Virus record (IMG/VR): IMGVR_UViG_3300020121_000217
Coordinates: 1-47,032 of that record
DNA from: a virus
Direction: 5' to 3' (one strand)
DNA: 47,032 bases
Of the stretch, positions 1 to 37,418 are shown piece by piece. Under the pieces are notes generated by a model. The model was not told the DNA's origin and did not search any database. It saw only the letters and a list, made by a program, of their open reading frames with translations. Every line of letters starts with the position of its first letter. The first letter of the stretch is position 1. Both the position numbers and the translations under genes were made by a program.

Positions 1-127
1 AGGCCGTCGAGGGCCGCGCACGACGACAGGTACAACACCCGGCGCTGACCGGTCCGGATCGCCCAGTCGTACATCGCCGCGTCGAGCATCGCGTTGTACG
101 GGTGCATACCCGGGTCGCCGTCGATCG
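1..127. repeat. Contig-end overlap: 1-127 identical to 46906-47032 (circular closure; unique length 46,905 bp)
   Basis: Both ends compared base by base; the epimerase ORF is complete only when the ends are joined. Confidence 0.95.
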
Positions 128-335
128 CCGTACGGTGCGGCGATCGCGCAGCCGCGTGCACGACCAGGTCATAGGACCAGGCATCTGCCCGGAACATCTC
201 AAGTGCGTCGATACTGGCGCACGCCGGTCCGGGCACGATGTCGCATTCGACCACGCCCCAGCCGCGGGTCGACAGTTCGCGGACCATGTGCCGGCCGACG
301 AACCCGGCCGACCCTGTCACCAGCGCCGTGCTCAC
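1..335 (-). CDS. NAD-dependent epimerase/dehydratase (extended SDR), N-terminal part; same gene as 46389-47032 across the junction (283 aa when the overlap is counted once)
   Basis: GTG at 335 overlaps the stop of the upstream methyltransferase (GTGA). My translation VSTALVTGSAGFVGRHMVREL carries the Rossmann motif TGxxGxxG. The frame runs into MHPYNAMLDAAMYDW of ORF 46389-47012. Confidence 0.8.
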   Translation of the reverse strand, partial: MSTALVTGSAGFVGRHMVRELSTRGWGVVECDIVPGPACASIDALEMFRADAWSYDLVVHAAARSPHRTAIDGDPGMHPYNAMLDAAMYDWAIRTGQRRVLYLSSCAALDG

Positions 336-886
336 AGGCATCCCCAGATCCCGAATGCATAATCCGAGCCGCCGGGGCGCATGTCGAGTTCGGCGTACAT
401 CGCCGCCTTGAAACCGGCGGCGGCGAGCATCTCCTCCACGTCGGCACGTGACCAGGCCCAGTAGTGCTCCGGATTCGTGTCGGCCCACGCATCTACCGGC
501 GTCGACAGCACCATTCGCCGCGTTCGGGCCCGGATCAGGCGCAGCACCAGGCCGGGATCGTCGAGGTGCTCCAGCGTTTCCGTGCACACGTACACGTCCA
601 CCGGATCCAGCGTCTGCAGGGTGCTCTCCAGCGGGCCCGTCACCTCGTAGCCGGGTGCCAGGTCACCGAAAACCTTCCGGGTGACATCCAGGCCCGACAG
701 GATCAGGCCGTCGCCGCACGACAGATCGGCAGCCGAACGCGCCCCCACGGTGCATACGCGGGCTACTACGGCGGTCACCGCGATACGCGGGCCGTGATCC
801 GGGTGATGGCCGCTGTCGTGCGGCCGCGGATACACACGGCCGAGCTCGTCGGCGCCGTAGGCCGGACGCAGCCGCTGCCGCGTCAT
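332..886 (-). CDS. Class I SAM-dependent methyltransferase (184 aa)
   Basis: C-terminal part of ORF 332-1462. ATG at 886 overlaps the upstream stop (ATGA). Motif I is DLSCGDG and CTETLEHLDDP is typical of Methyltransf_11/23-like folds. Confidence 0.85.
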   Translation of the reverse strand: MTRQRLRPAYGADELGRVYPRPHDSGHHPDHGPRIAVTAVVARVCTVGARSAADLSCGDGLILSGLDVTRKVFGDLAPGYEVTGPLESTLQTLDPVDVYVCTETLEHLDDPGLVLRLIRARTRRMVLSTPVDAWADTNPEHYWAWSRADVEEMLAAAGFKAAMYAELDMRPGGSDYAFGIWGCL

Positions 887-2304
887 GATGCCCGCACCGC
901 GGCGATTATCTGGAACGGCCCGCAGTACTGCTGGCGGATCACGGTCAGGCCGGCCTGCTCGACCAGGGCGCGGTAGCCGTCGGTGTCCCAGGCGAAGGTG
1001 TGGAACTCGTAGGCGCTGCCGGGGCGTTCCTGCCACGGCGACGAGCACACCAGCACCCGGGCGTTGCGGGCGATGTGGCGGACGAAGGCGTGCGGGTCGA
1101 CGAGGTGCTCGAGCATCTCGGTGCAGACCGCGATCTCGCCCCACTCGATATCGCCGTCGACGACGTCGCCGTAGCGGACGTCGACACCACGCTGCTTCGC
1201 GACCTGCAGGTTGGTCGGCTGCAGGTCGTAGCCCCAGGCCGTTATCGCCGGGCCGAGTAGCGACAGCAAGCCGCCATCGCCGGCGCCGAGGTCCACGAGC
1301 GTCGACAAGCCCCGCGAGAACGCAGTCTTCGCGACCAGCGAGGCGGTCGCCATCAGCCGTTCCCGGTGGCCTTGCTGCTCCAGGTGCGGGGCGTGGTCCC
1401 GGCCCGCGTACCAGTCCGGGCGGGTGTATTCGGGGACCGTGCCCGCCTCGAATAGCTGCCACTCGTGCGGCATCGCCGCGGCCGCTGCGGCCTCGGCCTC
1501 GTCGGCGGCCGCCATCCTCACGCGCATGTCCGCCAGGAGCTGCTGGCCGGCTTCGGCAAGGTCCGGCAGTTCACCGATAGTGGGGCGTAGCGCGCCAACC
1601 CGTGCGACGTCGGCCGTGAACGCGTTACGCCGGTAGGCGTCGTAGGCCGCGGCGTCGGCCGTGTAGACGGCCTGGTCGTTGACCCGCTGGTGACCTTCGG
1701 TCCACTCGGCCTTGCCGGCGACCGGGTGCATGTGCTCGACCACCACGTCCGGTAGGTAGCGGACACAGCTCGCGGCCCGGCCGAGGTCGAGCCAGAAGTT
1801 GTCGACATACATGTGACGCAGCCCGGTCGGTGCCATGAACCCGAGCGTCCGGATGATGTCGGCGGTCATCGCGCACTGCGTCGGGAGCCGCTCGCCCTGC
1901 AGGAGGTCGTCGCCGTAGACGATGCCGGTCCCCAGCTCGCGTAGCGCGGCGACGTACGCGGCGTCCCAGCCGACCGTACGGGGCCGGTGATCGTCGCCGA
2001 GGAATCCGACCGCGAATGGTGGGTTGGCGTTCTGCGGCTTGACGAGCCACTGCGCCGCGCCGTTGAGCGCGATAACCATGGTGCCCCGTGTGGTGCCGTC
2101 GCCACACGTGAGCCATCCGACCGTCTGTCCGCGATCCTGAGCGGCCTTTATGACCGTCTCGTAGGCGGAGTGATCCGGATCGTCGGCGTCGACCGCGAAC
2201 ACCAGAACGGTGTCAGCGGTACATGTCGCGGCGAACGTCTCGGCAAGGTCGGCGGCAGCGTCTGGCCGACCCCGTGATGGGACAATGACGGCGAGATCAG
2301 GCAT
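883..2304 (-). CDS. Fusion protein: N-terminal GT-A-type glycosyltransferase + C-terminal class I SAM methyltransferase (473 aa)
   Basis: ORF 883-2355; the likely start is ATG 2304 (MPDLAVIVPSRGRP), 8 nt overlapping the upstream stop. Motifs: VIVPSRGRP and VDADD (DxD), then LVDLGAGDGG and CTEMLEHLVDP. Confidence 0.8.
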   Translation of the reverse strand: MPDLAVIVPSRGRPDAAADLAETFAATCTADTVLVFAVDADDPDHSAYETVIKAAQDRGQTVGWLTCGDGTTRGTMVIALNGAAQWLVKPQNANPPFAVGFLGDDHRPRTVGWDAAYVAALRELGTGIVYGDDLLQGERLPTQCAMTADIIRTLGFMAPTGLRHMYVDNFWLDLGRAASCVRYLPDVVVEHMHPVAGKAEWTEGHQRVNDQAVYTADAAAYDAYRRNAFTADVARVGALRPTIGELPDLAEAGQQLLADMRVRMAAADEAEAAAAAAMPHEWQLFEAGTVPEYTRPDWYAGRDHAPHLEQQGHRERLMATASLVAKTAFSRGLSTLVDLGAGDGGLLSLLGPAITAWGYDLQPTNLQVAKQRGVDVRYGDVVDGDIEWGEIAVCTEMLEHLVDPHAFVRHIARNARVLVCSSPWQERPGSAYEFHTFAWDTDGYRALVEQAGLTVIRQQYCGPFQIIAAVRAS

Positions 2305-2551
2305 CGGTCGACCTCCGGGGCGGCGGCGTCCAGCCGAGCGCGACCAGAACGACATGCATGTCCTCGGTCACCACTACCTGCACGTCGCCCGATGTCGACA
2401 GTGAGCGCTGCAGCGGCATGTGCAACACCAGTGTGGGAATGCTGCGCACGTCCGCGTGCAGGTCGAGACCCGAGACGCCCTTGCTCACGTCCTGGCCGTC
2501 GAGGACGACCCGTGTTTTTGCGGCAGCGCCGATGACCAGATCGACGTTCAT
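2297..2551 (-). CDS. Hypothetical protein (84 aa) within the sugar-modification cassette
   Basis: ORF-track ORF with natural composition and ATGA overlap with the upstream gene. Confidence 0.6.
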   Translation of the reverse strand: MNVDLVIGAAAKTRVVLDGQDVSKGVSGLDLHADVRSIPTLVLHMPLQRSLSTSGDVQVVVTEDMHVVLVALGWTPPPRRSTDA

Positions 2552-2805
2552 GAGGGCTCACCAGCCTGCGCGGCAGTTGCCTTGGTTGGCCGCCCACGGC
2601 GTGCTGGCGCTACGGCTTCCGGCGTCTCAGGCTGGACCGGCTCGGATGTGACCGGATCCGGTACGACCGGGGCCGGCTCGTCGAGGGTCACGTCGAACAT
2701 CGGCGCGAACGCCTCGACGATCGGGTCGGCGGCGTCGAGTTCGGTGCCGCCGATGATCGTGCCGCCGCCGTGGTGGAACGTCTCCCGTGCCCGCGCGGTG
2801 CTCAT
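2548..2805 (-). CDS. Hypothetical protein (85 aa) with Pro/Glu/Thr/Val-rich tail and an RRGRPTK (AT-hook-like) motif
   Basis: C-terminal part of ORF 2548-3330. ATG at 2805 (MSTARARETF) overlaps the glycosyltransferase stop (ATGA). Confidence 0.6.
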   Translation of the reverse strand: MSTARARETFHHGGGTIIGGTELDAADPIVEAFAPMFDVTLDEPAPVVPDPVTSEPVQPETPEAVAPARRGRPTKATAAQAGEPS

Positions 2806-3554
2806 ATCTGTGCTCCTACATGCGTCGGGGACAGGAGTCCGTTCGCCACGAAGTAGCTCTCCAGCGTCAAGGTGCGCTGCTTCACGTGGCCCAAATTGAT
2901 GGATGTGTTGACGTACACGGGGATCTCGCACATGCCGGCGCGCCAGCAGAACGTGATGTCCTCGCTGACCGGCCGTCCGTCGGTCTCGGTCTCCTGGAAC
3001 CACGGGTAGGCCTGGTTGAAGCCGGTACGGTCCGGGGTCTTCGGTGACTGGTAGTCGCGGATCCGCTCGAACGCGGACCGGTGGACCAGCAGGCATGCGG
3101 CTCCGGTCGCGGCGACCTGGAACATGGCGTCCGGCTCCCACGTGTGGAACCGGACGACCTGCGTCTTGCCGTCGACGTCGTCGACGCCGTAGAGGGTCGG
3201 CTGGACGTCGCCGTCGGCGTCGAAGCCGAAGCACAGGCCGCCGACGATCGGCGCCTTGTCCGGATCCGCGTACTCGAGGAGCTTCTCGACGATGTCGGCC
3301 CGGAACGTCATGTCCGCGTCGACCATCCACAGCCAGTCGGCGGCGCCGTACTCGAGGAACCGCTCGACGAGGCCGTTGCGGGGGCCGGCGAGGTTGGTGC
3401 CGGCCTTCGCGGCCATGAAGCCGCCGCCATCGACGATCCGCTGGTGCGTCGCCGTGTCGAACATCAGCAGATGGATCATCGACTCCATGAACTCGCCCTG
3501 GACCAGGCCGGGATACAGGTAGCCGACGACCACTTTTTCGGATGGGTCACGCAT
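2802..3554 (-). CDS. GT-A/GT2-like glycosyltransferase (250 aa)
   Basis: ORF 2802-3554 with DxD in WLWMVDADMTF. GGAGG-containing RBS (CCTGGAGGAGTGAGCA) lies upstream of the ATG. Confidence 0.8.
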   Translation of the reverse strand: MRDPSEKVVVGYLYPGLVQGEFMESMIHLLMFDTATHQRIVDGGGFMAAKAGTNLAGPRNGLVERFLEYGAADWLWMVDADMTFRADIVEKLLEYADPDKAPIVGGLCFGFDADGDVQPTLYGVDDVDGKTQVVRFHTWEPDAMFQVAATGAACLLVHRSAFERIRDYQSPKTPDRTGFNQAYPWFQETETDGRPVSEDITFCWRAGMCEIPVYVNTSINLGHVKQRTLTLESYFVANGLLSPTHVGAQI

Positions 3555-3575
3555 TGCTCACTCCTCCAGGTAGGC

Positions 3576-3630
3576 GGAAGCCCCCGATACCTGGATCGGG
3601 GGCTTCCTTCCCGCCAGAGCTACTGGCGGG
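3576..3630 (-). terminator. Two tandem GC-rich hairpins (13-bp stem 3576-3607; 8-bp stem 3610-3630) with no U-tract; attenuator/terminator candidate
   Basis: GGAAGCCCCCGAT/ATCGGGGGCTTCC and CCCGCCAG/CTGGCGGG read directly from the sequence. Confidence 0.45.
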
Positions 3631-3643
3631 CGACGTAGGTGTT

Positions 3644-3841
3644 TCAGCTGCCGGACAGGCCCGGCGTCGGCTGGCGCGGCACGTCCAGGACGGCGTGGTC
3701 GGGTGCGTCCATCGACGCGTCAACGGCCGCCTGGGCCGCGGCGACGACGTCGGGCGACAGCTTCGTCAGGGACACCGGGGCGTCGCCCGGCGGCGGGTTG
3801 ATCGCACCGGACTGGATCTGGTGCGGGCTGTAGGGCTGCAT
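3644..3841 (-). CDS. Hypothetical small protein (65 aa) downstream of the capsid gene
   Basis: ORF-track ORF with a strong RBS (GAGGAGGAAAC-ATG). Confidence 0.6.
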   Translation of the reverse strand: MQPYSPHQIQSGAINPPPGDAPVSLTKLSPDVVAAAQAAVDASMDAPDHAVLDVPRQPTPGLSGS

Positions 3842-3853
3842 GTTTCCTCCTCT

Positions 3854-3904
3854 GCCCCGCGTCGGGGCGGTGATCCCGGCCGCGGACGGCTGTCCGCGGC
3901 CGGG
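3854..3904 (-). terminator. Two hairpins immediately after the major capsid stop (5-bp stem 3854-3868; 13-bp stem 3875-3904)
   Basis: CCCGGCCGCGGAC-GGCT-GTCCGCGGCCGGG is a perfect 13-bp stem with no U-tract. Confidence 0.5.
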
Positions 3905-3911
3905 CCGGGGG

Positions 3912-5396
3912 TCAGGCCAGCGCTGTTGCGGCGGCGACCTGGTTGAGCTGCAGGAGCCGGAACGCGTCGGCGTTCACGACGTCGGCGCCGGTGCGCCAGA
4001 AGCTGTACCAGCCGGACTGGCCGGTGGGCCGGTTGTTGCCGGTGGAGCGGATGATCGGGTCGTAGACCACGCTCATGCCGATCCGGTCGACGATGTAGTA
4101 CTCGGCGAAGTCGCCGACGAGGAGGATGTTCGCGCCGGTCGAGATGACCGCCGTCATCGTGGAGTTCCGGTACGCCGGGGCGCCGATGAGTTCCGGTGGT
4201 TGGCCGGCGCCGATGTTCGCCCAGAAGCTCGAACCGCCGGAGGTGTCGAACTGGCGGATTTTCGAGAAGATCTTCTTGTTCCCCATCCAGGTCAGGTTGT
4301 TTTCCTGGCGCGGGTTGACGGCGTCGATGGTGTTGTAGACGTCACCGACGACGAACGCGTTCGTGGTCGCGGACGTCACGATCGACGCGGTGACCGCGGC
4401 GACCGCGGCAACGACACCGCGGGGCTTCGTCGCACCGGTGTTCGCGGTCGCGAACGCCGCCTCCTCGAGGCGGACCTTCGCGTCCGCGAGGAGCCGGCCG
4501 AGTTCGGCTGCGAAGCCGCTGTCCTGGAACACCTCGTAGGAGCCGAACACCCAGGCGTCGGCCTTCTGCGGTGTGATCGTCGGCTGGACGTACGTCGGGG
4601 TCGCGTCGGCGGCCTCCGTGCCCTCACCGGTCCATTCGGCCGAGACACCGGCCGAGGTGACGCCCTCCCACTCCTTCGTCGCGATCGTCTTCGTCGTCGC
4701 GACGGAGCGGATCGGCCCGGAGATACCGGCGTTCGTGAGGATGATCGTCGGGTCCAGGAAGAACGGGACGAGGACGCCGCCGTTGCCGGCGGTCAGCGAC
4801 ATCGCCGTACGGACCAGGTCGCCCATGTTGTTGCCGGCCGACATGATGTACTGCCCGAACTGCTGGCGGTAGGCCTCGCTGCCGCACATCAGCATGTGCC
4901 GGGCGATCAGCGGCGCGTGCTGATTGTCGAGCTCCAGCAGCCGCGTGATCCGCTCACCGGCGGCATCGGCCTGCGCCGTGGAGTTGAAGGCGCCCTTCGG
5001 CATCTGCTCGACGGCGGCCTTCGCCCGGGCGATGACCGGGTCCGCGTCGAAGTTGACGCGCTCCGGCCCCTGGTAGGCGCTGCGGCGCAGCTCCTCGTAG
5101 GTCTGCTCGTCGTACGGGTCGGTTTTCTTCATGAACTCGGCGCTGCGTCGCACCGGTGCGACGCCTTCCTCCCGGTTACCCGGGTTGAGGGCCGCGCGGA
5201 GGACCTCGTCGACGGCGGCCTCACGCTCGCGGTGCCGCTTGAGTTCCTCGTCCTTGATCTTCCATTCGCCGAGCAGCGCGTCGGCGCGCGTCAGCTCGTC
5301 CTCGGTGGCCTCCTCGCCCTTCTCCGTGATCACGGTGATCTCGGCGCGGAGGACTTCCATCTCCTCGGAGATGACCTCGCTTTGCTTACGTGCCAT
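3912..5396 (-). CDS. Major capsid protein, HK97 family, with N-terminal coiled-coil (delta-like) region (494 aa)
   Basis: Sits after the protease. N-terminal charged heptads (EEMEVLRAEI...). GGVLVPFFLDPTIILT and ILLVGDFAEYYIVDRIGMSVVY are typical of HK97-fold capsid proteins. Confidence 0.9.
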   Translation of the reverse strand: MARKQSEVISEEMEVLRAEITVITEKGEEATEDELTRADALLGEWKIKDEELKRHREREAAVDEVLRAALNPGNREEGVAPVRRSAEFMKKTDPYDEQTYEELRRSAYQGPERVNFDADPVIARAKAAVEQMPKGAFNSTAQADAAGERITRLLELDNQHAPLIARHMLMCGSEAYRQQFGQYIMSAGNNMGDLVRTAMSLTAGNGGVLVPFFLDPTIILTNAGISGPIRSVATTKTIATKEWEGVTSAGVSAEWTGEGTEAADATPTYVQPTITPQKADAWVFGSYEVFQDSGFAAELGRLLADAKVRLEEAAFATANTGATKPRGVVAAVAAVTASIVTSATTNAFVVGDVYNTIDAVNPRQENNLTWMGNKKIFSKIRQFDTSGGSSFWANIGAGQPPELIGAPAYRNSTMTAVISTGANILLVGDFAEYYIVDRIGMSVVYDPIIRSTGNNRPTGQSGWYSFWRTGADVVNADAFRLLQLNQVAAATALA

Positions 5397-6524
5397 TCAG
5401 GACACTCCGTTGAATGCGAGCTCCGCGCGGATGCGGAGCAGCTTCTGCCGAGCGGAGTGCGCGTTTTCTTCGTCGCGCGGGTCCTCGGCGCCGGGTCCAC
5501 GGTGTGGAGTGGCGAGGATCGCCGCTGTCTCCGGGTCCCAGCCGGGAGTGGTGGACAGCGTGCGGATCAGTTCTTCGCGCTGCTCTGCGTCCAGGGCAGC
5601 GAAGTCGTGGGCGATCTCGTCGATCGAGCGGACGGCGGTGATCGCCGCATCCGGGTAGTAGGGCGTCATCGTCGGCCCGTAGTTCCGCAGCCCCAGCTCG
5701 AGGCGGCGTACCTTCGGCAGTGTCGTGCCCGGGCGGGCCCGGCCGGGGGCGCGCTGCGGGTCGGACCGGTAGATCGGGCCCTCGAAACTCTGCGCCGTGT
5801 AGTCCTGGTTGCGGATCCCGGCGAGGACCTGCTCGGCGAGCGGGCTGTCGTTGTACCGGGACACGGTCAGCAGGCCGCGGCTGTCGGCCTTGATGTCGAC
5901 GGGGTGGCCGAGTGGTGTCTGCTGCAGGCCGCCGGTCTTGCCCTGCGGGTCGTAGCCGTGGTTGAGCAGGACCTGGGCGCGGCGTGCGGCACCGCCGTTG
6001 ATCGTGCGGGCGAACGCGGCCGGGTCGACGGTCTCGATGTAGTCGCCGTGCGCGTCGTGGATCTCGGCTGGCGCGTTGAACACCGCGGCGTAGGCCTCGA
6101 CGGTGCGCCCGTCGCCGCCCTTGGCCCGGGACAGGATCTCGATGCCGTCGAGGACGAACACCCGCTGGTAGGTCTGCGGAGCGGACTGGCGCGCCCGGGC
6201 GGTGCCGGCGAGGGCCAGCAGCGACGCCGGCGGCTTGTCGCCGATCTCGCCGTACAGGCCCACGAGCGCCTTTGCCGCCGCCTCGCGCTGCGGTGCGGTG
6301 AGCCCGTCGACGGCGGCGATGCCGTGCGCCCCCGCCGCGGCGTGGACCGCGTTGCTGTTGAGCGTCCCGTCGGGTTCCCGGACGGGCACCTTGTGCAGGT
6401 CCTTGACGTCCGGGTCCTGGCCGGCGGCAGGCTCCATATTGATCAGGCACGCGGAGTGCCACTGCTGGGCCGTGTAGTCGGCCTGCGAAAAATCGGACCA
6501 CGGCTTGTCGGAGACGGATGCCAT
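5397..6524 (-). CDS. Prohead (HK97-type, S78-like) maturation protease with ~120-aa N-terminal extension (375 aa)
   Basis: Lies between portal and capsid. Core: VFVLDGIEILSRAKGGDGRTVEAYAAVFN...HGDYIETVDPAAF...VLLNHG. Confidence 0.8.
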   Translation of the reverse strand: MASVSDKPWSDFSQADYTAQQWHSACLINMEPAAGQDPDVKDLHKVPVREPDGTLNSNAVHAAAGAHGIAAVDGLTAPQREAAAKALVGLYGEIGDKPPASLLALAGTARARQSAPQTYQRVFVLDGIEILSRAKGGDGRTVEAYAAVFNAPAEIHDAHGDYIETVDPAAFARTINGGAARRAQVLLNHGYDPQGKTGGLQQTPLGHPVDIKADSRGLLTVSRYNDSPLAEQVLAGIRNQDYTAQSFEGPIYRSDPQRAPGRARPGTTLPKVRRLELGLRNYGPTMTPYYPDAAITAVRSIDEIAHDFAALDAEQREELIRTLSTTPGWDPETAAILATPHRGPGAEDPRDEENAHSARQKLLRIRAELAFNGVS

Positions 6525-6533
6525 GTCTACTCC

Positions 6534-7925
6534 TCATACCGTCGCGAGTTGCGGAATCGTGCCGTTCGTGCCGAGCGCGGCCGGTGGCGGCCCGGTGACG
6601 ACCGGGACGGCCGGCTGCAGCTTGTCCTCGAGCTTCTGCATCTGCACCGACACCAGACCGGAGTGCACGAGCAGGGTCAGGTCGTTCGCGGTGACGGCGG
6701 TGATGATCGAGTCCGGCGTGTAACCGGCCATGATCAGCTTGTTGATCGTTTCGGCCTGCGCGGCCAGGGTGGCGGCCTTGTCCTGCTCGCCCTGCTGCAG
6801 CGCGGAGACGTCGGTCGTGTCGTACCAGAGCTGCGATCCCGGCGGCACGGCGACGAGTTTCGCCAGCGCCGCGCAGGCGCTGCGCCAGTTCGGGCGCATC
6901 TTCAGATCGGCGAACGACCGCAGCGCCTGGGCGTACTCGCCGATCTGGGAGGCCTGCAGGCCCTCGCGGAGCCCGGCGACGATCGCCGGTACGCCGGCCG
7001 CGACCGCGATCCGGGTCTCGCCGGCGGCCTGCAGCTTGTCGAACGCGGAGCCTTCCATGTCGCGGCCGACGACGGTCAGGTCGGCGCCCTCGTCCAGGAC
7101 GAGCGTGCCGAACGCGCCGTCCGGGCCGGTATGTTTGGCCCGGAGCATCGTCTTGAGCCGCTCGATGCGCTCCGGCGCGATCTTCTGGCTGTACTTGATC
7201 ACGAGGTTCGGCGTCGCGGCGTTTCGAAAGAACGCTTCCCTATACTCTGACATGCGGATATCGGCCGACAGCTCCCGTACGACGGGGGTCAGCCAACTCA
7301 TGCCGCGGAAGTTGGCGAGCGGATCCGGGCACGGTGCCCAGTGCGCAACCTCGTCGACGGGATAGAACTCGGCTTCGCGCTGCATGTCGCCGACCGGGTC
7401 GTACCAGAAGCCGATCACCCGGCGGACCTGCGAACCCAGCGCATCGGTCATGATCTTCGACACGATCGTGACCCAGTCCGGGCGCAGCCGCTCCAGCTGG
7501 TCGCCGCAGTCGCGGACGTAGGCGTTACCGGCCAGGCTAGCGTCCTGCTCCATGCGTGCGAGCAGGTCACCGGTCGTCGCGTCCGGCCACGGCACCTCGA
7601 GTTTGCGCAGGCTCGTGTCGCCGAACATTCTCTTGTCCGACAGGCGCCGGTATTTGAACGTCGCCTCGGTGAACACCGACATGCGCCGGTCGATGAGCCC
7701 GAACACGACCGCGTTGCCGCCGGTCCCGGACACCCCGAAGGACGAGGACGTGTAGCCGGAGCTGCCGTAGGCGTTCGCGGCCAGGAGCTCGAAGTCATAC
7801 AGCGGTGTTTCGGCGTCCGGTGGCCCGTACAGCGACACGAACCGCACCGACTGGGAGCCGGGCGACCCGGCCCGGCGGACCTGGTGGTCAACGGCGAGGC
7901 GGTGCATACGTGCCAGGGACGTCAC
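6534..7925 (-). CDS. Portal protein, HK97 family (about 463 aa)
   Basis: C-terminal natural-composition part of ORF 6534-9323. GTG at 7925 follows a GAGAGG RBS; ATG at ~7907 is an alternative. Lies after TerL. Confidence 0.85.
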   Translation of the reverse strand: MTSLARMHRLAVDHQVRRAGSPGSQSVRFVSLYGPPDAETPLYDFELLAANAYGSSGYTSSSFGVSGTGGNAVVFGLIDRRMSVFTEATFKYRRLSDKRMFGDTSLRKLEVPWPDATTGDLLARMEQDASLAGNAYVRDCGDQLERLRPDWVTIVSKIMTDALGSQVRRVIGFWYDPVGDMQREAEFYPVDEVAHWAPCPDPLANFRGMSWLTPVVRELSADIRMSEYREAFFRNAATPNLVIKYSQKIAPERIERLKTMLRAKHTGPDGAFGTLVLDEGADLTVVGRDMEGSAFDKLQAAGETRIAVAAGVPAIVAGLREGLQASQIGEYAQALRSFADLKMRPNWRSACAALAKLVAVPPGSQLWYDTTDVSALQQGEQDKAATLAAQAETINKLIMAGYTPDSIITAVTANDLTLLVHSGLVSVQMQKLEDKLQPAVPVVTGPPPAALGTNGTIPQLATV

Positions 7926-16485: not shown

Positions 16486-17742
16486 TCAGGTGCGCCGCTG
16501 CAGCTGGGCGTAGTCGGACGGGTTGAGGCCGTAGCCCCATGCGGCGGCGGCGATCGGTGTCGGGATCGATCCGGGGACGGTTAGCCCGAACTGGTGGCGG
16601 GTGCCGTCGCGTTCGGGGGTGCCGTTGGTGCACAGCAGCACCCGGACGGGTTCGTCGAAGATCTGCTCGGGCAGGTCGTAGAGGGTGAGGGTGTGGCCGG
16701 GGTTGCCGGGGTCTTCGGCGGTGCCGCCGATCTGGGCGAAGCGGCCGGCTGCGATGAACTCGGGCCAGCCCATGCGCTCGATCGCGCAGCGGCGGATTTC
16801 GGCGTTGCGTTCGCGGATGATCCGTTCGACGGTCCAGCCGGGGCCTTCGATGAGGTCGCCGGGTACCTGGGTGCCGTGCCAGTACCAGACTGCCCAGCCG
16901 TCGGCCCAGGTCCGTGCGGGACCTGTGGCGTTGTGGGGGTCGTTGTTCGGGTCCATGTGGACGGACGTCTGCCGGTCGACGAGGATCGCGAACTTGGGGT
17001 GCTCGATGCGGCCGGCGGTCTGGCGGGCGAGGGTCTCGTAGTGCTGCCATTTGTCGTAGACGGGTAGGTTGAGCTCGGCGATGTGGCGGAAGAACGACAG
17101 GTAGGCGCACCAGCCGGACCAGTCGGATCCGCTGGCGTACATGCGGTACCACTTCGGCAGGCAGGCCAGGTAGAAGCGAACCAGCGCCCCGGTCGCCGCC
17201 CCGGTCGCCGCGTAGGTCGCCGCGCGGGTCGCCGCGTAGGTCGCCGCGTCGGTCGCCGCGTCGGTCGCCGCGTAGGTCGCCGCGTAGGTCGCCACGTCGG
17301 TCGCCGCGTCGGTCGCCGCGTCGGTCGCCGCGTCGGTCGCCGCTCCGGTCGCCGCTCCGGTCGCCGGTGGTGGTGGCGGTGGGGTGGTGCCGGTGAGTGC
17401 GGCTTGGCCTCTGGTGACGGCGAGGTGGCATGTTGGGGCGATCGCGGCGAGCATTTCGGCTTCGGTGACGGTGCGGCCGAAGAGCTGTGCGTGGGTGGCG
17501 GGGTTGTCTCGTAGGTACCAGATGGATGCGGCGATGGTTCCCGCGATGGCTGCGGTCATGGGTGAGGAGACGTGGGCGATGCGTGCGGGTGGTGTGAGTT
17601 TTGCGGCGGCGTAGAGGCCGCGGATGGCTGTTACGGCTGTTGTGTGGTCGGCGGGCGTCGTCGATAGGGCGTTGTCGATCCACGTCTGTGCCCAGTCGTC
17701 GAGTTGTTTTTTGTGTTCCGGATGGTCGTCGAAGCTGTACAT
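16486..17742 (-). CDS. Hypothetical two-domain protein with central Pro6 + (x-A-A-T)15 repeat linker (418 aa)
   Basis: ORF-track ORF. C-terminal domain: WYWHGTQVP...[16 protein letters not shown]. Function unknown. Confidence 0.75.
17191..17370. repeat. 15 x 12-nt perfect-period tandem repeat GGTCGCC(G/A)C-NNN (in frame)
   Basis: Counted unit by unit from 17191 (17191 + 14 x 12 = 17359 for the last unit). Confidence 0.95.
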
Positions 17743-23504: not shown

Positions 23505-24758
23505 ATGGCGAGTCGACGCAAACGCCCTACGGCCCGCCTCGGCGCAGATGGTTACTGGCACGTGTGGGTCACGGTCGGGACCAAGCCGAACGGCCGGCCG
23601 GACCAGCGCCATATCAGCCGCGAAACCCAGGACGCAGCCGAGGACGATGCCGACGAGGTGCTCGATCAGCTCAAGGTCGGCCAGGTTCTCAAACCTGGCG
23701 CGAAGCCAACCGTCAAGAGCTGGATGACGATATACCTGGCGACCGTCGCGCCACGTCGATGCAACCCCAGCACCATCTACGACTACGGCTCCAAGATGAA
23801 GAATTGGGTCTACCCGAACTACGGTGCGAAGCGGCTCGACCGCCTGGCGCCGGAAGACCTGGACGCGATCTACCTCGCCATGAACGAAGCCGGGAAGGCA
23901 CAGTCACACCAGCTCAAGGTGCACCGCATCCTGTCTCGCGCCCTCGATATCGCACTGCGCCGCGGACACGTGACCCGAAACGTGGCGAAACTCGTGGACG
24001 CACCATCAGTCGACCCGGTGAGTACGAAAGCACTCGCCGAGCCGGTCGCGCGAGCGATTCTCCAGGTGACGGCGAAGCGTCGCCACTCGGAACGATGGGA
24101 TGTGGCGTTCGCCCTCGGGCTGCGCCAGGGCGAGGCGCTGGGCCTGCGGTGGGAAGACGACGACGGCACCGTGCTGGTCGACCTGGACGCCGGCATGCTT
24201 CACGTCTGGTACCAGCTTCGGCGCCTCATCTATGTCCACGGCTGCGGCGGGAAATGCGGCCGGGCGAGGGCCGCCGAGTGCCCCCAGGCCTCGGCCGGCG
24301 GTCTCATGTATCGAAAATGCAAAGGTAAGAGCAAGCGGTCAATTCCGATCCCGCCCGAACTCCTTCCGAAGCTCGCCGCGGCCAAGAAGCGGCAGGCGGC
24401 TGAGAAGCTGGCGCACGCGGGGCCGTGGGCAGCCGGCAACGCCGTGTTCACAACGATCGATGGCCGCCTCGTCGATCCGCGGGACGACTACGACGAATGG
24501 GTGTCGATTCTCGAAGAAGCCGGCGTCAAGAAGGTCAAGCCGCACATCATGCGCCACACCGCCGCGACTCTGCTCCTCGCACAGGGAGTTGACGTCCGCG
24601 TCGTCCAGGAGCTGCTGGGCCACAGGGACATCCGCACGACGCAGGGCTACACCCAAGACGTCGACGTGCTACTCGTGGAGGCGATGAAAAAGACGGTTCT
24701 ACGCACCCCGACGAAGATCAACAGTGTACAAAACCGTGTACTGAAGGCGGTTGAATGA
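23505..24758 (+). CDS. int: Tyrosine integrase (417 aa)
   Basis: AGGAGGA RBS. GLRQGE (Arg I), HIMRHTAAT (H-x-x-R), LLGH and TTQGYTQ (catalytic Tyr region). Confidence 0.9.
24714..24742 (+). repeat. 29-bp direct repeat copy 1 (AAGATCAACAGTGTACAAAACCGTGTACT); arm-type site candidate
   Basis: 27/29 identical to 24940-24968. Contains GTGTAC twice. Confidence 0.8.
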
Positions 24759-26977: not shown

Positions 26978-27206
26978 CGCAATCCCATCGTTCGCGCGAA
27001 GTCAGCGGCGTGGAGTTCCTGCCTGAGATATCCGACGCATGGGAACGGGCGGCAGCAGGTACACAGCCAGCGCAGTGGCCACCTAAGCCGATGGTGAAGA
27101 ACATTCACGATCGTCTACCCCCTACCTTCCGCCGTGGATCCGGACATACATTGATGTGCAGGACTACAGCGTCGCCAGGCATCCACGACCGTTGAAGTAC
27201 CTAGCC

Positions 27207-27222
27207 GTCTACACCCGTCTAC
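27207..27222 (+). promoter_or_regulatory. Tandem CCGTCTACA boxes 10 bp apart, 14 nt upstream of the XRE gene start
   Basis: GTCTAC at 27207 and 27217, plus a third at 27113. Confidence 0.35.
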
Positions 27223-27236
27223 AGATCGCGCAGCCA

Positions 27237-28442
27237 ATGGCCGAAACGTTCGCCGAAGTGCTCAAATCAGTCCGGGAGGCAACCGGGCTGAGTCTCAGCG
27301 CGATCGCGGCCCGAACACACTTCGGCAAGTCCACGCTCGGGCACATCGAGAACGGCATACGTCAACCGTCGGCCGAGATCGCCGCCGCGTGCGACAAGGC
27401 GCTCGGCACGTCGCCGCTGCTCGCGCGACTGTTCGACCTCGACGGAAAAGGGGACACCGTGCAACGGCGGACGCTGATGAGAGGCATTGCAGCCGGCCTA
27501 GGCGGCGGCGGAATCGGCATGGACTTCTTCGCCGCGCAGGTCCAAGCCGGACTGCTAGAGGCAATCGGTGAACCCCACGACTGGGACTCGATCGTCGACA
27601 CCTACCGGCGGCGCCTGGTCCAGGAGCCATCGGCGGAGTACGGGGAGTCGCTGCTCACGGAAGTGACGCTCGCGCATTATCTGGTGGTCGACGCCGGTGG
27701 CGACGACAAGACCATGCTGCGGGCGGCCGCCGAGCTTTCGCATCTCTACGGCCTGTGGCTCGGTAACCAGAGCCGGATCGTCGCGGCGCACGGCTGGTAC
27801 AAGACGTCGATCATGCTGGCCGACCGCAGTACCGACCTCGAACTGACGACCTACATGATCGGCCGGACCGCATCCCGCGAGGTCTATGAAGGAGCGACGC
27901 TCAGCGAGACGATCGCGGCCGCGGAGAAAACGCTGGCGTTGTCACGGACCGCGACCCGCGGTGTGCTCGAGGCGAACTCGGCCTTAGCCCATGCGTGGGC
28001 CCTAACCGGCGACCTTGCGAAGGGCCGCACGGCGATCATCGGGATGGAGAACGTCGCCGGCGAGCTCGCGGACGCGGACGCGATCGCCGGCCCGGTTCAG
28101 CGGACATGGAGCGTCCGGACGTTCTTCGAGTGCCGCACCGCGCCGATAGACGACGCGTACGAGGTGTTCAACCAAGCGGAGCGGATGTTGCGGTCTGCGC
28201 CGGTGTGGCTGGTCGAGGCCCGCATGTACTGGGCCCGCGCCCAGGTCGCCGCCGGCGATGTCACCGGCGGGATCCGGTACGCGTTGGAGGCGATCCGCAC
28301 GAGCGGGCAGGATGCGCGGATAATCGGGGTAGCAGTCCGCGACATCCTCTTCGTCGTCCCGGCCGGTTACCGGTCGGAGGAGCTGGACGAGCTGCGTCTG
28401 TACGCCGCCAAGGGCGCGATGCCATGGGAGATGCTCGTATGA
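27237..28442 (+). CDS. XRE-family HTH regulator with long helical (TPR-like) C-terminal domain, WhiJ-like (401 aa)
   Basis: MAETFAEVLKSVREATGLSLSAIAARTHFGKSTLGHIENGIRQPS is an XRE-type HTH. The C-terminal ~330 aa is Ala/Leu-rich and helical. ORF-track start 27156 is possible. Confidence 0.75.
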   Translation: MAETFAEVLKSVREATGLSLSAIAARTHFGKSTLGHIENGIRQPSAEIAAACDKALGTSPLLARLFDLDGKGDTVQRRTLMRGIAAGLGGGGIGMDFFAAQVQAGLLEAIGEPHDWDSIVDTYRRRLVQEPSAEYGESLLTEVTLAHYLVVDAGGDDKTMLRAAAELSHLYGLWLGNQSRIVAAHGWYKTSIMLADRSTDLELTTYMIGRTASREVYEGATLSETIAAAEKTLALSRTATRGVLEANSALAHAWALTGDLAKGRTAIIGMENVAGELADADAIAGPVQRTWSVRTFFECRTAPIDDAYEVFNQAERMLRSAPVWLVEARMYWARAQVAAGDVTGGIRYALEAIRTSGQDARIIGVAVRDILFVVPAGYRSEELDELRLYAAKGAMPWEMLV

Positions 28443-30007: not shown

Positions 30008-31768
30008 ATGACCTGGAAGACCGTTGCCTACCGCTATCTGGCCGGCCGGCCGCTCGACGGCCGCGCCGGCTATCCGTACCTTCGACCCGGCGCGGGCCGG
30101 CTGGCGGGCTGGCAGCGCCAGATCGCCCGGGTGGCGATCCCCGCCGCCACCGTGCTCGCCGCGGCCGAGCCGCACAACGCCGCAGTCGCCGCCACGATGG
30201 CCGGCATTGTCGCCGTCGTCGGGGTCCGCCGGCGGCTGCTGCGGCGCCGGTTCCGGCGCGAATACATCGCCCCGACCCTCGCGGCGGTCACCGCCCCGCT
30301 CGGGGGCGTACCCGTGAAGCTTCACGTCGACCCGGGCCTCGGGAACCTCACGCCGCGGCTGGCGAAGCCACTCAGCCCGGCCGAGCGGCACCTGCGCCGC
30401 GTCTACGGCGAACACGTCGAGCCGGTACTGCGGTGGCCGGCGGACCGGGCGATGCGCGGCCTGTGGCTGCTGCAGCGCATCGCGATACCGGTGACGTCGC
30501 GGGTCGCCGCGGCGGTCCGCCGGCCGGGGGAGAAGCCGGGCCCGCGGATCGAGCTGACGGCGTCGACGCCGTACCTGACCGCGGAGCAGCGCAAGCTGAT
30601 CTCGTCGATCATCACCAGCAAGCTGCCCGTCTCCGATCTCGTCGAGACGTGGGACCAGGTCGGCGCGAAAGTCACCGGCACCTGGGTCGTACGGAAGCGG
30701 CCGCCGTCACAGGTCGGCTACGACGAACTCGTCGCGGCGATGCCACGCCTCGCCGAATGGGAGTTCTACATCGGCCAGGGCCCCGGCAACACCGCGGTGA
30801 CGATCAGCCTGAAAGACGACTCGCCACACATCGCCGTGTCCGCCGGATCCGGCGCCGGCAAGTCCGTGCTCGCGCAGCTCCTCGCCGTCCAGGTCCTCGC
30901 CCGCGGCGGCCGCGTCACGATCCTCGACCGCAAGGGCAGCCACCGGTGGGCCCTCGGCCTACCGGGAGTCGACTACTGCACCAAGCCGGCCGCGATGCAC
31001 AACGCGCTGATCCGCCTCGCCGGTCTCGCCGACCAGCGCAACACCGATGCGCTCGACGAGCCGGAGGACTGGGACCCGGGCGTACGGCATCTCGTCATCG
31101 TCGAGGAGCTCAACGCGACGATCGGGCAGCTCATGACGTACTGGGCCGACATTCGGGAGAAGTCCGACCCGAAGAAGTCGCCGGGCGTGACGAGCCTCGC
31201 CGAGATTCTGTTCATGGGACGCGCGGCGAAAATCAACGCCCTCGCGATCGCGCAGATGCTGACCGCCCGGGCGATCGGCGGCCCGGAGGCGCGCGAGAAC
31301 TTCGGCATCCGGTTCCTCGCACGGTTCACCTCGAACGCGTGGAAGATGCTCGTCCCCGAGGCCGCGCAGCCGCGCGCTTCACGGACCCTCGGACGGTGGC
31401 AGGTCGTCATCGGCGGCACGGCGGTCGAGGTCCAGGTGTGTTACCTGACGGGTGCGCAGGCACGTGCGATCGCAGCGCCCGTTACCGGTCGCGCAGAAGA
31501 CCCTGATAGCGGCTTGAGCAGCACTGTCACCGGTAACGGCGGGGAAACCGGTAACACGGTCGACCCCCTCGCTGAGCCGATCACGATCCGCGAGGCGATC
31601 GCCGAAGGCGTCCTGCCGTGGGGCAAAGACGCCGTGAAGATGCGGATGCTACGGGCACGGAAGGCCGGACGGCCGGTGCCGGCCGTCGTCGGCAAACGCG
31701 GCATGCAGACGGCCCTGTACCGCCGCGGGGACCTGATCATCTGGGCCGAATCGGAGAAGGTGTCATGA
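30008..31768 (+). CDS. FtsK/SpoIIIE-family DNA translocase ATPase, TraB/TraSA-like (586 aa)
   Basis: Walker A in VSAGSGAGKSVLAQLL, Walker B-like HLVIVEEL, N-terminal hydrophobic segments. Confidence 0.8.
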   Translation: MTWKTVAYRYLAGRPLDGRAGYPYLRPGAGRLAGWQRQIARVAIPAATVLAAAEPHNAAVAATMAGIVAVVGVRRRLLRRRFRREYIAPTLAAVTAPLGGVPVKLHVDPGLGNLTPRLAKPLSPAERHLRRVYGEHVEPVLRWPADRAMRGLWLLQRIAIPVTSRVAAAVRRPGEKPGPRIELTASTPYLTAEQRKLISSIITSKLPVSDLVETWDQVGAKVTGTWVVRKRPPSQVGYDELVAAMPRLAEWEFYIGQGPGNTAVTISLKDDSPHIAVSAGSGAGKSVLAQLLAVQVLARGGRVTILDRKGSHRWALGLPGVDYCTKPAAMHNALIRLAGLADQRNTDALDEPEDWDPGVRHLVIVEELNATIGQLMTYWADIREKSDPKKSPGVTSLAEILFMGRAAKINALAIAQMLTARAIGGPEARENFGIRFLARFTSNAWKMLVPEAAQPRASRTLGRWQVVIGGTAVEVQVCYLTGAQARAIAAPVTGRAEDPDSGLSSTVTGNGGETGNTVDPLAEPITIREAIAEGVLPWGKDAVKMRMLRARKAGRPVPAVVGKRGMQTALYRRGDLIIWAESEKVS

Positions 31769-35634: not shown

Positions 35635-35969
35635 GTCGGGGTTACCCCTTGGTTGGCTTCGACGCGGGCGACGGCGTCGGCCATGGATGAGCCGCCGTTA
35701 CGGGTGACGGCTCCGCGTACGGTGCCCACGGCCGACTCCAGCGCGGTGATCCGCTCTAGGGCACCCGGGCGCGGCTGGATGCCCTTCGCCGGTTGCCCTG
35801 GGTCTCCTGTCCACTCCTCGACCATTCGCCGGTTCGGCTCGAGGTAGCGCCTCACGACCCAGCGGCCGACGCCGAGGATCGCGGTCACGATGCCGATCGC
35901 GGAGATGACGATCGCGAGGAGCGTCTGGGTGTGTTCGGCCGAGGCGCTGGCCGCCGCAAGGACCGTCAT
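35631..35969 (-). CDS. Single-TM membrane protein (112 aa), holin/lysis-accessory candidate
   Basis: ATG 35969 overlaps the lysin stop (ATGA). TM segment: TLLAIVISAIGIVTAILGV. Confidence 0.5.
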   Translation of the reverse strand: MTVLAAASASAEHTQTLLAIVISAIGIVTAILGVGRWVVRRYLEPNRRMVEEWTGDPGQPAKGIQPRPGALERITALESAVGTVRGAVTRNGGSSMADAVARVEANQGVTPT

Positions 35970-36889: not shown

Positions 36890-36902
36890 ACGATGTCTCC
36901 TC

Positions 36903-37418
36903 CTATGCGGGCTGTGGGATGAGCCTGAGCCACGATCCGGCCTTGAGGATCGTGTTCGCCGCGTTGGACACGTTCTGTGCCCACTGCAGGGTTGCGAATC
37001 CGGCGGTGGAACCGTTGAGGACGGTGCCGCGCAGTGGTGCGCCGGTGATGCTTCCGGCACCGGCGGTGCCGAGGGCGTTGACCTTGTCGCTGAGCCGGAC
37101 GACGCCGTCGCCCGTGGCGGTCACGCTTGTGGCCAGGCCGTTGAAGACCCAGTAGCGGGTGGCGCCGGACGGTACGGTCAGCTGGAACTTGATCAGCGGT
37201 GTCGCGGCGGTGTCGTAGAGCAGCATCGCGTCCACGTAGTAGTTGATGTTCGCGGCGACCGGAACGGTGAGGTCCGGGTCGTCGGCGAACGTGGTGGTGC
37301 TGCTGCGGGTGGTGTCGGAGACTTTGATCGCGGTCACGGGCATGATGTTGTTGATCGCGTTGTTGAGCGCCAGGGCGGTGAGGGCCTGGCCGGCGGTGAA
37401 CGCGTAGATCGACGTCAT
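36903..37418 (-). CDS. Minor tail protein (171 aa)
   Basis: Sits after the large tail protein. Thr/Ala/Asn-rich beta-type sequence. Confidence 0.55.
   Translation of the reverse strand: MTSIYAFTAGQALTALALNNAINNIMPVTAIKVSDTTRSSTTTFADDPDLTVPVAANINYYVDAMLLYDTAATPLIKFQLTVPSGATRYWVFNGLATSVTATGDGVVRLSDKVNALGTAGAGSITGAPLRGTVLNGSTAGFATLQWAQNVSNAANTILKAGSWLRLIPQPA

Follow-up and report, generated by a model that had tools for sequence, protein, structure and literature searches.

The 47,032-nucleotide stretch of viral DNA analyzed here (IMG/VR record IMGVR_UViG_3300020121_000217, positions 1 to 47,032; hereafter the window) carries a cassette of predicted sugar-modification genes between its major capsid and head-tail connector genes. 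The cassette encodes two glycosyltransferase (GT) domains, two methyltransferase (MT) domains, and a short-chain dehydrogenase/reductase (SDR). With a probability of roughly 0.55, we propose that these products act late and in the cytoplasm to O-glycosylate virion proteins as heads and tails are assembled, attaching a short, partly O-methylated glycan. This reading is favored because the position of the cassette is kept inside head modules, including one non-homologous module, because the enzymes are soluble and come with no flippase or membrane component, and because the nearest solved folds of the first glycosyltransferase, GT1, are protein O-glycosyltransferases. It is further favored by co-variation of the capsid tail with cassette type and by the precedent of phages Che8, Corndog, and Myrna. 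The capsid protein would be the prime candidate acceptor, with its C-terminal tail the leading candidate site.

The phage is a temperate siphophage of actinobacteria, from soil, with a genome G+C of 68% and every late gene on the minus strand. Bases 1-127 are an exact copy of 46906-47032. This 127-nt direct repeat at the window ends is an assembly overlap, not a biological repeat, so the genome is circular with a length of 46,905 bp. Read along the minus strand, the order is capsid gene, hairpin, orf65, two hairpins, GT1, orfA, orfB, a GT-MT fusion, a stand-alone MT, the SDR, and the connector:

3912-5396, minus strand: major capsid protein gene, 494 aa, HK97-type with a scaffold-like N-terminal region (Pfam Phage_capsid, 1.4e-37); homologues of 55-76% identity lie ahead of GT1 in related loci.
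3842-3911, minus strand: GC-rich hairpin with a 13-bp stem, 3' of the capsid stop codon (minimum free energy -46.9 kcal/mol, z = -3.98).
3644-3841, minus strand: orf65, 65 aa (G+C at third codon positions 0.94; GGAGGA ribosome-binding site).
3555-3643, minus strand: two tandem hairpins with 8-bp and 13-bp stems, just 5' of the GT1 ribosome-binding site (minimum free energy -47.5 kcal/mol, z = -4.27).
2802-3554, minus strand: GT1, a 250-aa GT-A glycosyltransferase containing WLWMVDADMTF.
2548-2805, minus strand: orfA, 85 aa, with a Pro/Glu/Thr-rich tail and an AT-hook-like basic RRGRPTK.
2297-2551, minus strand: orfB, 84 aa (phrog_16729, 1e-9).
883-2304, minus strand: GT-MT fusion, 473 aa, in which a helical linker joins a GT-A domain (residues 1-240) to a class I S-adenosylmethionine-dependent methyltransferase domain (residues ~280-473).
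332-886, minus strand: stand-alone class I methyltransferase (MT), 184 aa (Methyltransf_23, 1.9e-5, below threshold).
1-335, minus strand: 5' part of the SDR gene, with a GTG start codon at 335-333 (283 aa in total, reconstructed across the circular junction).
46389-46905, minus strand: 3' part of the SDR gene, with its stop codon at 46389-46391.
46906-47032, no strand: the 127-nt copy of bases 1-127, an assembly overlap marking a circular contig (exact identity).
45801-46379, minus strand: head-tail connector/adaptor gene, which bounds the cassette downstream (Pfam Phage_connect_1, 1.4e-7; phrog_442, 2.9e-16).

An earlier description of this DNA, made by a model from the letters alone (the sequence-only reading), had reported a six-gene sugar-modification cassette translated as part of the structural operon. 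Its genes are all present at the positions that it gave, on the minus strand, and its enzyme assignments (two GT-A domains, two class I methyltransferase domains, one extended-SDR epimerase) hold. The six genes that it listed stand, but the count does not, as a seventh gene, the 65-aa reading frame at 3644-3841, lies between the hairpin regions. The SDR gene does span the contig junction, as claimed; the junction itself is an overlap artifact of the circular assembly. Embedding in the late structural operon is borne out by the site between capsid and connector genes and by overlapping stop and start codons: ATGA at GT1/orfA, orfA/orfB, and GT-MT/MT, 8 nt at orfB/GT-MT, and GTGA at MT/SDR, all as described. 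The strong hairpins reported after the capsid gene are likewise real (-46.9 and -47.5 kcal/mol, z about -4). No T-tract is present at the hairpins, and the post-capsid hairpin is probably an attenuator or mRNA stabilizer that lowers expression of the downstream enzymes. A scan of 1-6600 for sigma-70 promoters and T-tract terminators, a scope that leaves actinobacterial promoter types outside, returned scores no better than those of shuffled sequences, which is weak evidence against an internal cassette promoter.

Megablast of bases 1-6600 against 50,697 phage records gave no match, indicating that no cultured phage is closely related. With GT1 as tblastn query, the phage records gave only 4 weak matches, all uncultured, and an exact-sequence look-up of GT1 returned no record. 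At E<1e-3, GT1 has 683 homologues, many of them carried by contigs of 45-62 kb, and the family is almost confined to phage-sized contigs and prophages. The chromosomes of Micromonospora sp. WMMA1363 (L015) and Krasilnikovia sp. MM14-A1259 (L018) each contain a prophage with the same layout, as does a Jiangellaceae metagenome-assembled genome; these copies place the lineage in Actinomycetota, chiefly Micromonosporaceae. A single-sequence pattern scan for the capsid protein gave nothing, and an alignment-based scan succeeded. A total of ~50 distinct loci (numbered with the prefix L) have a capsid protein 40-85% identical to that of the window and enough downstream sequence. In all of these, the first glycosyltransferase gene downstream of the capsid gene is GT1, at 74-2726 bp from the capsid stop codon. 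Because the same order recurs in dozens of independent contigs, the arrangement is not due to chance.

The core of GT1, second GT, and SDR is kept in a fixed position at 40-65% identity. Minimal cassettes, consisting of the capsid gene, GT1, a second GT, the SDR, and the connector, are found in L005 and L035, and L034 is alike to its contig end. In L033, GT1 and a second GT occupy a non-homologous head module, between genes for an SPP1-type portal and for lambda gpD-like decoration and gpE-like capsid proteins. Among cultured phages, Brujita and Gordonia phage Agueybana have the most closely related capsids; in both, an adaptor gene comes almost directly after the capsid gene and there is no cassette.

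Around the core, gene content varies. Methyltransferases are absent, separate, fused, or present in two copies, and the 170 homologues of the fusion show extensive domain shuffling. Extra genes before the connector encode GT2s, methyltransferases, decoration- or fiber-like proteins, and, to judge from a weak Pfam match, possibly a sulfotransferase. Several sub-lineages have swapped the GT/SDR set for one with a divergent GT, a Glyco_tranf_2_5 GT, or a nucleoside diphosphate (NDP)-hexose C-methyltransferase (Methyltransf_13/14); the swapped sets also hold SDRs of the dTDP-glucose- or GDP-mannose-4,6-dehydratase type, 2-oxoglutarate (2OG)-Fe(II) oxygenases, and a polysaccharide deacetylase.

The interval between capsid and connector genes is an insertion hotspot. 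Genes of the HNH/Endonuclease VII type lie between capsid and GT1 in L004 (5449-6321), L015 (9104-9730), L018 (9223-9936), L030 (556-1227), and L034 (upstream reading frame), and a DDE transposase of an insertion sequence sits within the cassette of the Micromonospora prophage (L015, 12430-13872). Large or Ser/Thr/Gly-rich proteins are encoded between SDR and connector in L018 (13207-16827), L028 (6599-8614), L003 (11332-12628), L004 (10749-11270), L009 (3680-4108), and L010 (3802-4212). One of them has 1206 aa and a Gly-rich C-terminus and matches tail-fiber and minor-tail PHROGs. These proteins may be head fibers or decoration proteins. The connector proteins of several relatives have an extra N-terminal extension of ~100 aa.

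Such traffic raises an alternative that we regard as rather improbable, namely that the enzymes act on another phage protein (orfA, orf65, or a decoration or fiber protein of the relatives) or that the cassette is a mobile "moron" island with no virion role. The hotspot itself, which in relatives has received HNH endonucleases, an insertion sequence, decoration-like proteins, and the 1206-aa fiber-like protein, agrees with such an origin, as does the constant presence of Pro/Thr-rich orfA-type proteins after GT1. However, the minimal cassettes of L005 and L035 have no accessory structural gene, the GT1/GT/SDR core is under long-term conservation in a fixed position, and neither orf65 nor orfB is conserved.

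The small genes themselves offer a few leads. The sequence-only reading had noted a Pro/Glu/Thr-rich tail and RRGRPTK in one of two small reading frames, and both are present in orfA. A motif, D-x-x-[HD]-P-[ILV]-V-x-A-x-P-x-x-F, followed by a basic tail, is common to orfA and to reading frames of 61-84 aa after GT1 in L002 (2143-2397), L006 (5083-5277), L009 (1232-1417), L019 (7402-7587), L023 (1762-1992), L026 (5949-6140), L027, and L065 (10257-10496). The orfA-type Pro/Thr/Glu-rich protein always follows GT1, and its tails include AT-hook-like GRP cores such as RRGRPTK in the window and RRGPGRPPGSRNK in L023. It could be a DNA-binding or an acceptor protein. Among the loci, orfB has a single homologue, placed between tail genes in the Micromonospora prophage (L015, 19368-19601), from which we conclude that orfB is a mobile small gene and not a fixed part of the cassette. 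Pfam and PHROG searches with orf65 found no family match; its motif YSPHQ[IV]xSG recurs, in two copies, in the 76-aa reading frame that holds the corresponding position in L003.

GT1 is the conserved anchor of the cassette. It matches the PHROG glycosyltransferase family phrog_34859 (5e-13), and its match to Pfam GT2 (E 0.002, score 18.4) is under the cutoff of 23.3. D79 and D81 of its DxD motif are invariant across 36 homologues. Phmmer against PDB sequences found no match for GT1 and only marginal methyltransferase matches for the fusion, and AlphaFold 2 (AF2) models with Foldseek, a comparison that the sequence-only reading had recommended, were adopted for both. The model of GT1 has a GT-A fold with a predicted local distance difference test (pLDDT) score of 78, and the search obtained GT-A neighbors (E 8e-9). 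The best PDB neighbors are COLGALT1, the LH3 glycosyltransferase domain, ppGalNAc-T2, STIV A197, and Mimivirus R699. Human COLGALT1 is a collagen hydroxylysine galactosyltransferase, and the best solved neighbors of GT1 are protein O-glycosyltransferases together with viral GTs. We propose that GT1 is the initiating, protein-directed transferase. Some relatives also encode 2OG-Fe(II) oxygenases, including P4H-like 2OG-FeII_Oxy_3, AlkB-like 2OG-FeII_Oxy_2, and PhyH types (L061, 10065-10688; L028, 5153-5602; L030, 4367-5044). Given these oxygenases and the likeness of the GT1 fold to collagen hydroxylysine glycosyltransferases, hydroxylation-dependent protein glycosylation is a possibility in some relatives.

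The GT-MT fusion combines two activities in one chain. It matches the PHROG glycosyltransferase families phrog_2675 (9e-51) and phrog_14945 (5e-37); the GT domain has no Pfam GT match, and the MT domain matches Methyltransf_23 above cutoff (5e-8 over residues 316-423). Invariant residues of the family are D104, D105, and H106; E190, H191, and H193; and D338, G342, and D343, the last three within methyltransferase motif I, VDLGAGDGG. The fusion of a GT-A domain to a methyltransferase was thus correctly recognized in the sequence-only reading, but the VDADD that it had cited is probably not the metal-binding DxD, which is more likely G-D104-D105-H106. The AF2 model has a pLDDT of 91, and Foldseek again obtained GT-A and methyltransferase neighbors. 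The GT domain resembles oligosaccharide-building GT-A enzymes, the fucosyltransferase WrtF and K4CP. The MT domain is closest to EvdMO1, an everninomicin sugar O-methyltransferase whose structure has fucose bound (1e-9); next come TcaB9 and TylM1, which are sugar C- and N-methyltransferases. From these modeled folds, the MT domain would catalyze a methylation like sugar O-methylation. The stand-alone MT had been called a paralogue of this domain, and BLASTP supports a distant relationship (34% identity over 64 aa, E=4e-7). It is found in most related cassettes and missing from some.

The SDR is a Pfam Epimerase family member (2.1e-28) with motifs that are invariant in 17 homologues: GxxGxxG (TGSAGFVG), S104/S105, and Y116xxxK120 (Y116-A-A-T-K120). 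A family profile searched against the PDB matches GDP-mannose 3,5-epimerase best (5e-32), followed by the UDP-GlcA 4-epimerase MoeE5, the UDP-Glc 4-epimerase GalE, and GDP-fucose synthase. Because it lacks the Thr-Asp-Glu signature and its nearest profiles are epimerases, the enzyme is an epimerase or epimerase/reductase. Of the earlier designation as epimerase/dehydratase, only the first half stands. An NDP-hexose 4,6-dehydratase is ruled out, as LSSCAAL replaces the Thr-Asp-Glu segment (TDEVYG). True dehydratase-type SDRs are found only in alternative cassettes of relatives, with VSTDEVYG in L065 and a GDP_Man_Dehyd match of 6e-58 in L025. Residues ~167-180 of the window SDR (EAYVTAMNSDDVEL) include a 12-residue insertion seen in 0 of 16 homologues. 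A loop of ~22-39 residues between Ser104 and Tyr116, which most homologues have, is missing in the window SDR and in L003, L007, and L008. These changes may alter substrate specificity.

Taken alone, such enzymes could also serve the cell surface. Soluble GTs might modify cytoplasmic lipid-linked cell-wall precursors late in infection. The receptor would thereby be altered, which would keep progeny from being trapped on debris or make the dying cell resistant to superinfection. GT-A enzymes commonly use polyprenyl-linked acceptors without having transmembrane segments, the fusion GT domain resembles the polysaccharide-building WrtF and K4CP, and the cassettes of relatives, with 4,6-dehydratases, C-methyltransferases, and a deacetylase, look like polysaccharide or deoxysugar loci. 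Nevertheless, we consider this alternative unlikely. The cassette is without a flippase, polymerase, ligase, or membrane protein; none of its seven products has a membrane segment (maximum 19-residue Kyte-Doolittle score <1.5). Its embedding in the late head operon and its translational coupling imply that it should be silent in lysogens, and late in infection there would be little time for wall turnover. Moreover, the cassette retains its place in the head modules of two unrelated capsid types, and the GT1 family occurs almost only on phage-sized contigs and prophages. Late modification of host envelope glycans, which the sequence-only reading had offered as its alternative, is therefore weakened by the missing membrane protein and by the late head operon.

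Capsid proteins encoded next to a cassette have a 12-residue tail following a conserved FRLL motif, and more distant capsids without GT1 stop right after an FRxL motif. The window codes for this tail as follows:

3915-3950, minus strand: codons of the capsid C-terminal tail QLNQVAAATALA, with a single Thr, four residues from the C-terminus, as candidate glycan acceptor.

The C-terminal peptide ends in FRLLQLNQVAAATALA, and the conserved tail includes NQVAAATALA. A canonical form, QLN[QTE]VAA[AS][TV]AL[AG], characterizes 29 loci, although the identity of their capsid bodies to that of the window is only 54-85%, and all 29 have a window-type cassette (GT1 and the same GT family, with the SDR wherever the contig reaches it). 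Another 14 loci have other long tails, most of them richer in Thr (NTTAAFTAKAS, HTTPGFTALG, ATTATAIPLA, SPTVAITALG); in 13 of these 14, the window-type second GT is missing and a different cassette is present. The association between tail type and cassette type is strong by Fisher's test, not corrected for phylogeny (p = 4e-10). In a neighbor-joining tree of capsid bodies, tail and cassette switch together at least 3-4 times (L025, L061, L067/L077, and the L063 clade). A long tail accompanies GT1 in 42 loci and occurs without it in 1; this exception, L087, has no Thr in the C-terminal part of its tail. The co-variation is suggestive, not decisive, evidence that the tail may be an acceptor.

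A tail protein is a possible second acceptor:

43989-44405, minus strand: 138-aa major tail protein paralogue with a Ser/Thr-rich C-terminus, FPTSGATTRGTS (phrog_4574, 3.5e-29).

Its C-terminus, PT[ST]GA[VT][ST]R[AG][TE]S, is conserved in 5 loci. The gene is the second of a tandem pair of paralogous major tail genes on the minus strand (44480-45223, 247 aa, phrog_9522, and 43989-44405, 138 aa), and the pair is kept in relatives. A similar tail-gene duplication has been described in cluster CB phages of Rhodococcus, whose genomes likewise have genes for a GT and a methyltransferase (PMC13313380).

A broader proposal, which we put forward tentatively and hold to be doubtful, is that the cassette and the 10-12 residues at the capsid C-terminus form one co-evolving module of acceptor and enzymes. 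GT1 would be its fixed initiator, later genes would be swapped as in an O-antigen locus, and capsids of soil actinophages would come in "glycan serotypes" built of natural-product-type sugars. If so, virion glycosylation would be widespread, extending to hundreds of metagenomic relatives, and would be under diversifying selection in an environment free of antibodies. Such a setting would in turn imply that the glycan serves some ecological end other than immune shielding: it might guard the virion against proteases or predation, mediate adhesion, or help in evading surface traps of the host.

Several observations weigh against glycosylation of the virion or loosen its support. In eight loci, a GT1 homologue is present and the capsid tail is missing, and L005 has a full cassette yet carries Val in place of the tail Thr; a strict rule equating presence of the tail with presence of the cassette is thereby ruled out. 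The co-variation of tail and cassette is confounded by shared ancestry and by physical linkage, as only 74-1950 bp separate the tail from GT1. Nucleotide identity in the 39 nt of the capsid tail is 51-69% between cassette types versus 72-79% within a type, a modest drop, and the nucleotide signal for a module boundary at the capsid 3' end is weak; recombination and selection are inseparable over so short a stretch. The fold matches of GT1 are loose (TM-scores of 0.45-0.53 of the query, pLDDT 78), and the acceptor type cannot be read from a modeled GT-A fold. With TM-scores in this range, its likeness to protein O-glycosyltransferases is a lead and not proof of an acceptor. BLASTP of the window enzymes against Che8 gp108-110 and Corndog gp35-38 found nothing, and no PHROG or Pfam family is held in common with these proteins (phrog_854, 1721, 4447, 8858, 6608). 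An hhalign comparison of the GT1 family with a profile of Che8 gp110, Corndog gp38, and pas35 (3 sequences only) gave a probability of 0.75%, and mycobacteriophage GTs are absent from the top 50 viral fold matches of GT1. Finally, Streptomyces phages encode distant homologues of the fusion GT domain next to DNA-metabolism genes; the one in Streptomyces phage Blueeyedbeauty, 37% identical, lies among replication and nucleotide-metabolism genes.

This last gene neighborhood (L114, 6375-8081) places two GTs and a nucleotidyltransferase amid genes for DnaE, RecA, dUTPase, deoxynucleoside monophosphate (dNMP) kinase, and an exonuclease, and suggests DNA rather than virion modification in that phage. 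Extended to the window, the argument would be that the GTs glycosylate genome bases before or during packaging as a defense against restriction, and that the methyltransferases act on the base or on the sugar. Post-replicative hypermodification of DNA by phage GTs is known (bioRxiv 10.1101/2023.12.21.572611), the Blueeyedbeauty homologue is found beside nucleotidyltransferase, dNMP kinase, and replication genes, and the L028 cassette contains an AlkB-like 2OG oxygenase. We judge such a role very unlikely for the window. Neither the cassette nor 17 Pfam-scanned non-structural open reading frames, a scan that leaves out some small reading frames and that divergent enzymes could escape, include a thymidylate-synthase-like hydroxymethylase, a C5-cytosine methyltransferase, or a TET/JBP oxygenase. 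The methyltransferases are of small-molecule or sugar type (Methyltransf_23; nearest fold EvdMO1) and not DNA methylases, the cassette lies in the head module and not among replication genes, and the NDP-sugar epimerase, like the deoxysugar C-methyltransferases of relatives, points to elaborate glycans.

If virion proteins are the target, the cassette enzymes might act in the following order. The SDR would convert a host nucleotide-sugar into the donor sugar for the phage. GT1 would put the first sugar on Ser or Thr of a structural protein, the best candidate being the Thr four residues from the capsid C-terminus, and the GT-A domain of the fusion would add a further sugar. Judging from their folds, the fused MT domain and the stand-alone MT may then O-methylate the glycan. 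The post-capsid hairpins would cut read-through, such that the enzymes are made in catalytic, not structural, amounts.

Other genes of the genome fit the temperate siphophage assignment or stand apart from the cassette:

5397-6524: protease/scaffold gene, 5' of the major capsid gene.
23505-24758: tyrosine integrase gene, supporting a temperate lifestyle.
27156-28442: helix-turn-helix repressor-like gene.
35966-37060: glycoside-hydrolase-type lysin gene.

The non-structural part of the genome also encodes a DUF6745 protein (16486-17742, minus strand) and a HerA/FtsK-like ATPase (30008-31768, plus strand). No phage DNA polymerase was seen among the open reading frames scanned.

Should the product of the cassette be carried on the virion, phage glycosylation would be much more common than thought and would have evolved more than once, and mammalian antibodies would not be its primary concern. 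The relatives would then constitute a natural library of compact toolkits for glyco-engineering, each with an initiating GT, an acceptor tag, and tailoring enzymes. The cultured hosts of the prophage relatives make the question of a virion glycan directly testable.

To our knowledge, covalent glycosylation of phage particles has been demonstrated in only a few mycobacteriophages, and outside Mycobacterium we know only of published hints from gene content in some Gordonia, Streptomyces, and Rhodococcus phages. Secondary accounts that summarize Freeman et al. 2023 (Cell Host Microbe 31:1216) describe Che8, Corndog, and Myrna virions as bearing O-linked glycans on the C-termini of their capsid and tail-tube subunits (PMC12363180, PMC11600133, PMC12619734), and one of them gives Che8 gp110 and Corndog gp38 as required for capsid glycosylation (PMC12363180). 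The Corndog head operon has an O-methyltransferase and three GT genes placed between those for the portal and the protease, and Corndog capsid peptides were under-detected in mass spectrometry (PMC4351075).

The window resembles these systems in several respects. All pair phage-encoded GT-A-type glycosyltransferases with S-adenosylmethionine-dependent methyltransferases in actinobacterial hosts. Che8 gp108 is, like the window fusion, a GT and a methyltransferase in one protein, in this case with a TylF-type methyltransferase. The Corndog cassette also lies within the head operon, in the slot between portal and protease genes as opposed to the capsid/connector slot of the window. The acceptors in Che8 and Corndog are capsid and tail-tube C-termini, and the window counterparts of both proteins have short, conserved C-termini bearing Thr or Ser. 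On the other hand, the methyltransferases belong to Methyltransf_23/11 in the window versus TylF/Methyltransf_24 in Che8 and Corndog, and the nucleotide-sugar epimerase is an addition relative to those phages. The window lineage is uncultured, temperate, and associated with Micromonosporaceae-type hosts, and it is known from its genes alone, whereas glycans have been demonstrated in Che8, Corndog, and Myrna.

Actinoplanes phage phiAsp2 (NC_005885) offers a further comparison. Its pas34 is the closest cultured-phage homologue of the fusion GT domain (39.7% identity, 1e-37), is likewise a GT joined to a methyltransferase, and belongs to a series of translationally coupled genes that closes the structural region in a phage with a Micromonosporaceae host. 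The methyltransferase domain of pas34 is Methyltransf_24 (TylF-like), unlike that of the window fusion, and because the two domains are of different type, the fusions must have arisen independently. The neighboring pas33 and pas35 are members of the Che8 gp108N and gp110 families, neither of which the window encodes, and phiAsp2 has neither a GT1 homologue nor an SDR. Because the link to validated systems runs only through this co-occurrence in phiAsp2, the functional association is indirect and the architecture convergent.

A more distant parallel is PBCV-1 A064R, a chlorovirus capsid-glycan enzyme in which two rhamnosyltransferase domains are combined with a 2-O-methyltransferase domain. As proposed for the window, a virus-encoded, host-independent cytoplasmic pathway uses GT-A domains fused to a methyltransferase, and in PBCV-1 the methylated glycan is on the major capsid protein. 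PBCV-1 differs in being a eukaryotic giant virus with N-linked glycans; a PBCV-1 protein ranks only 20th among the viral fold matches of GT1, and there is no evidence of homology.

GtrABC-type O-antigen conversion systems and prophage wall-teichoic-acid GTs are expressed from the prophage, lie by the integrase or attachment site, and include membrane proteins (a flippase and an integral GT). They are like the window cassette in that temperate phages encode the glycosyltransferases. Gtr-like serotype conversion is ruled out for the window, however, as the cassette is in a late operon, ~20 kb away from the integrase, and encodes no hydrophobic segment. Phage DNA glycosylation, including the T4 alpha- and beta-glucosyltransferases and the systems that attach glycans to 5-hydroxymethylcytosine (5hmC), likewise uses cytoplasmic phage sugar transferases; the window differs in its sugar or small-molecule-type methyltransferases and in its head-module context.

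On paper, by gene content and arrangement, the window cassette resembles the known virion-glycosylation systems, although it falls outside their protein families. What it adds to them is a set of non-orthologous enzymes, a nucleotide-sugar enzyme, another insertion point and host clade, and a large lineage whose cassettes vary in the manner of O-antigen loci.

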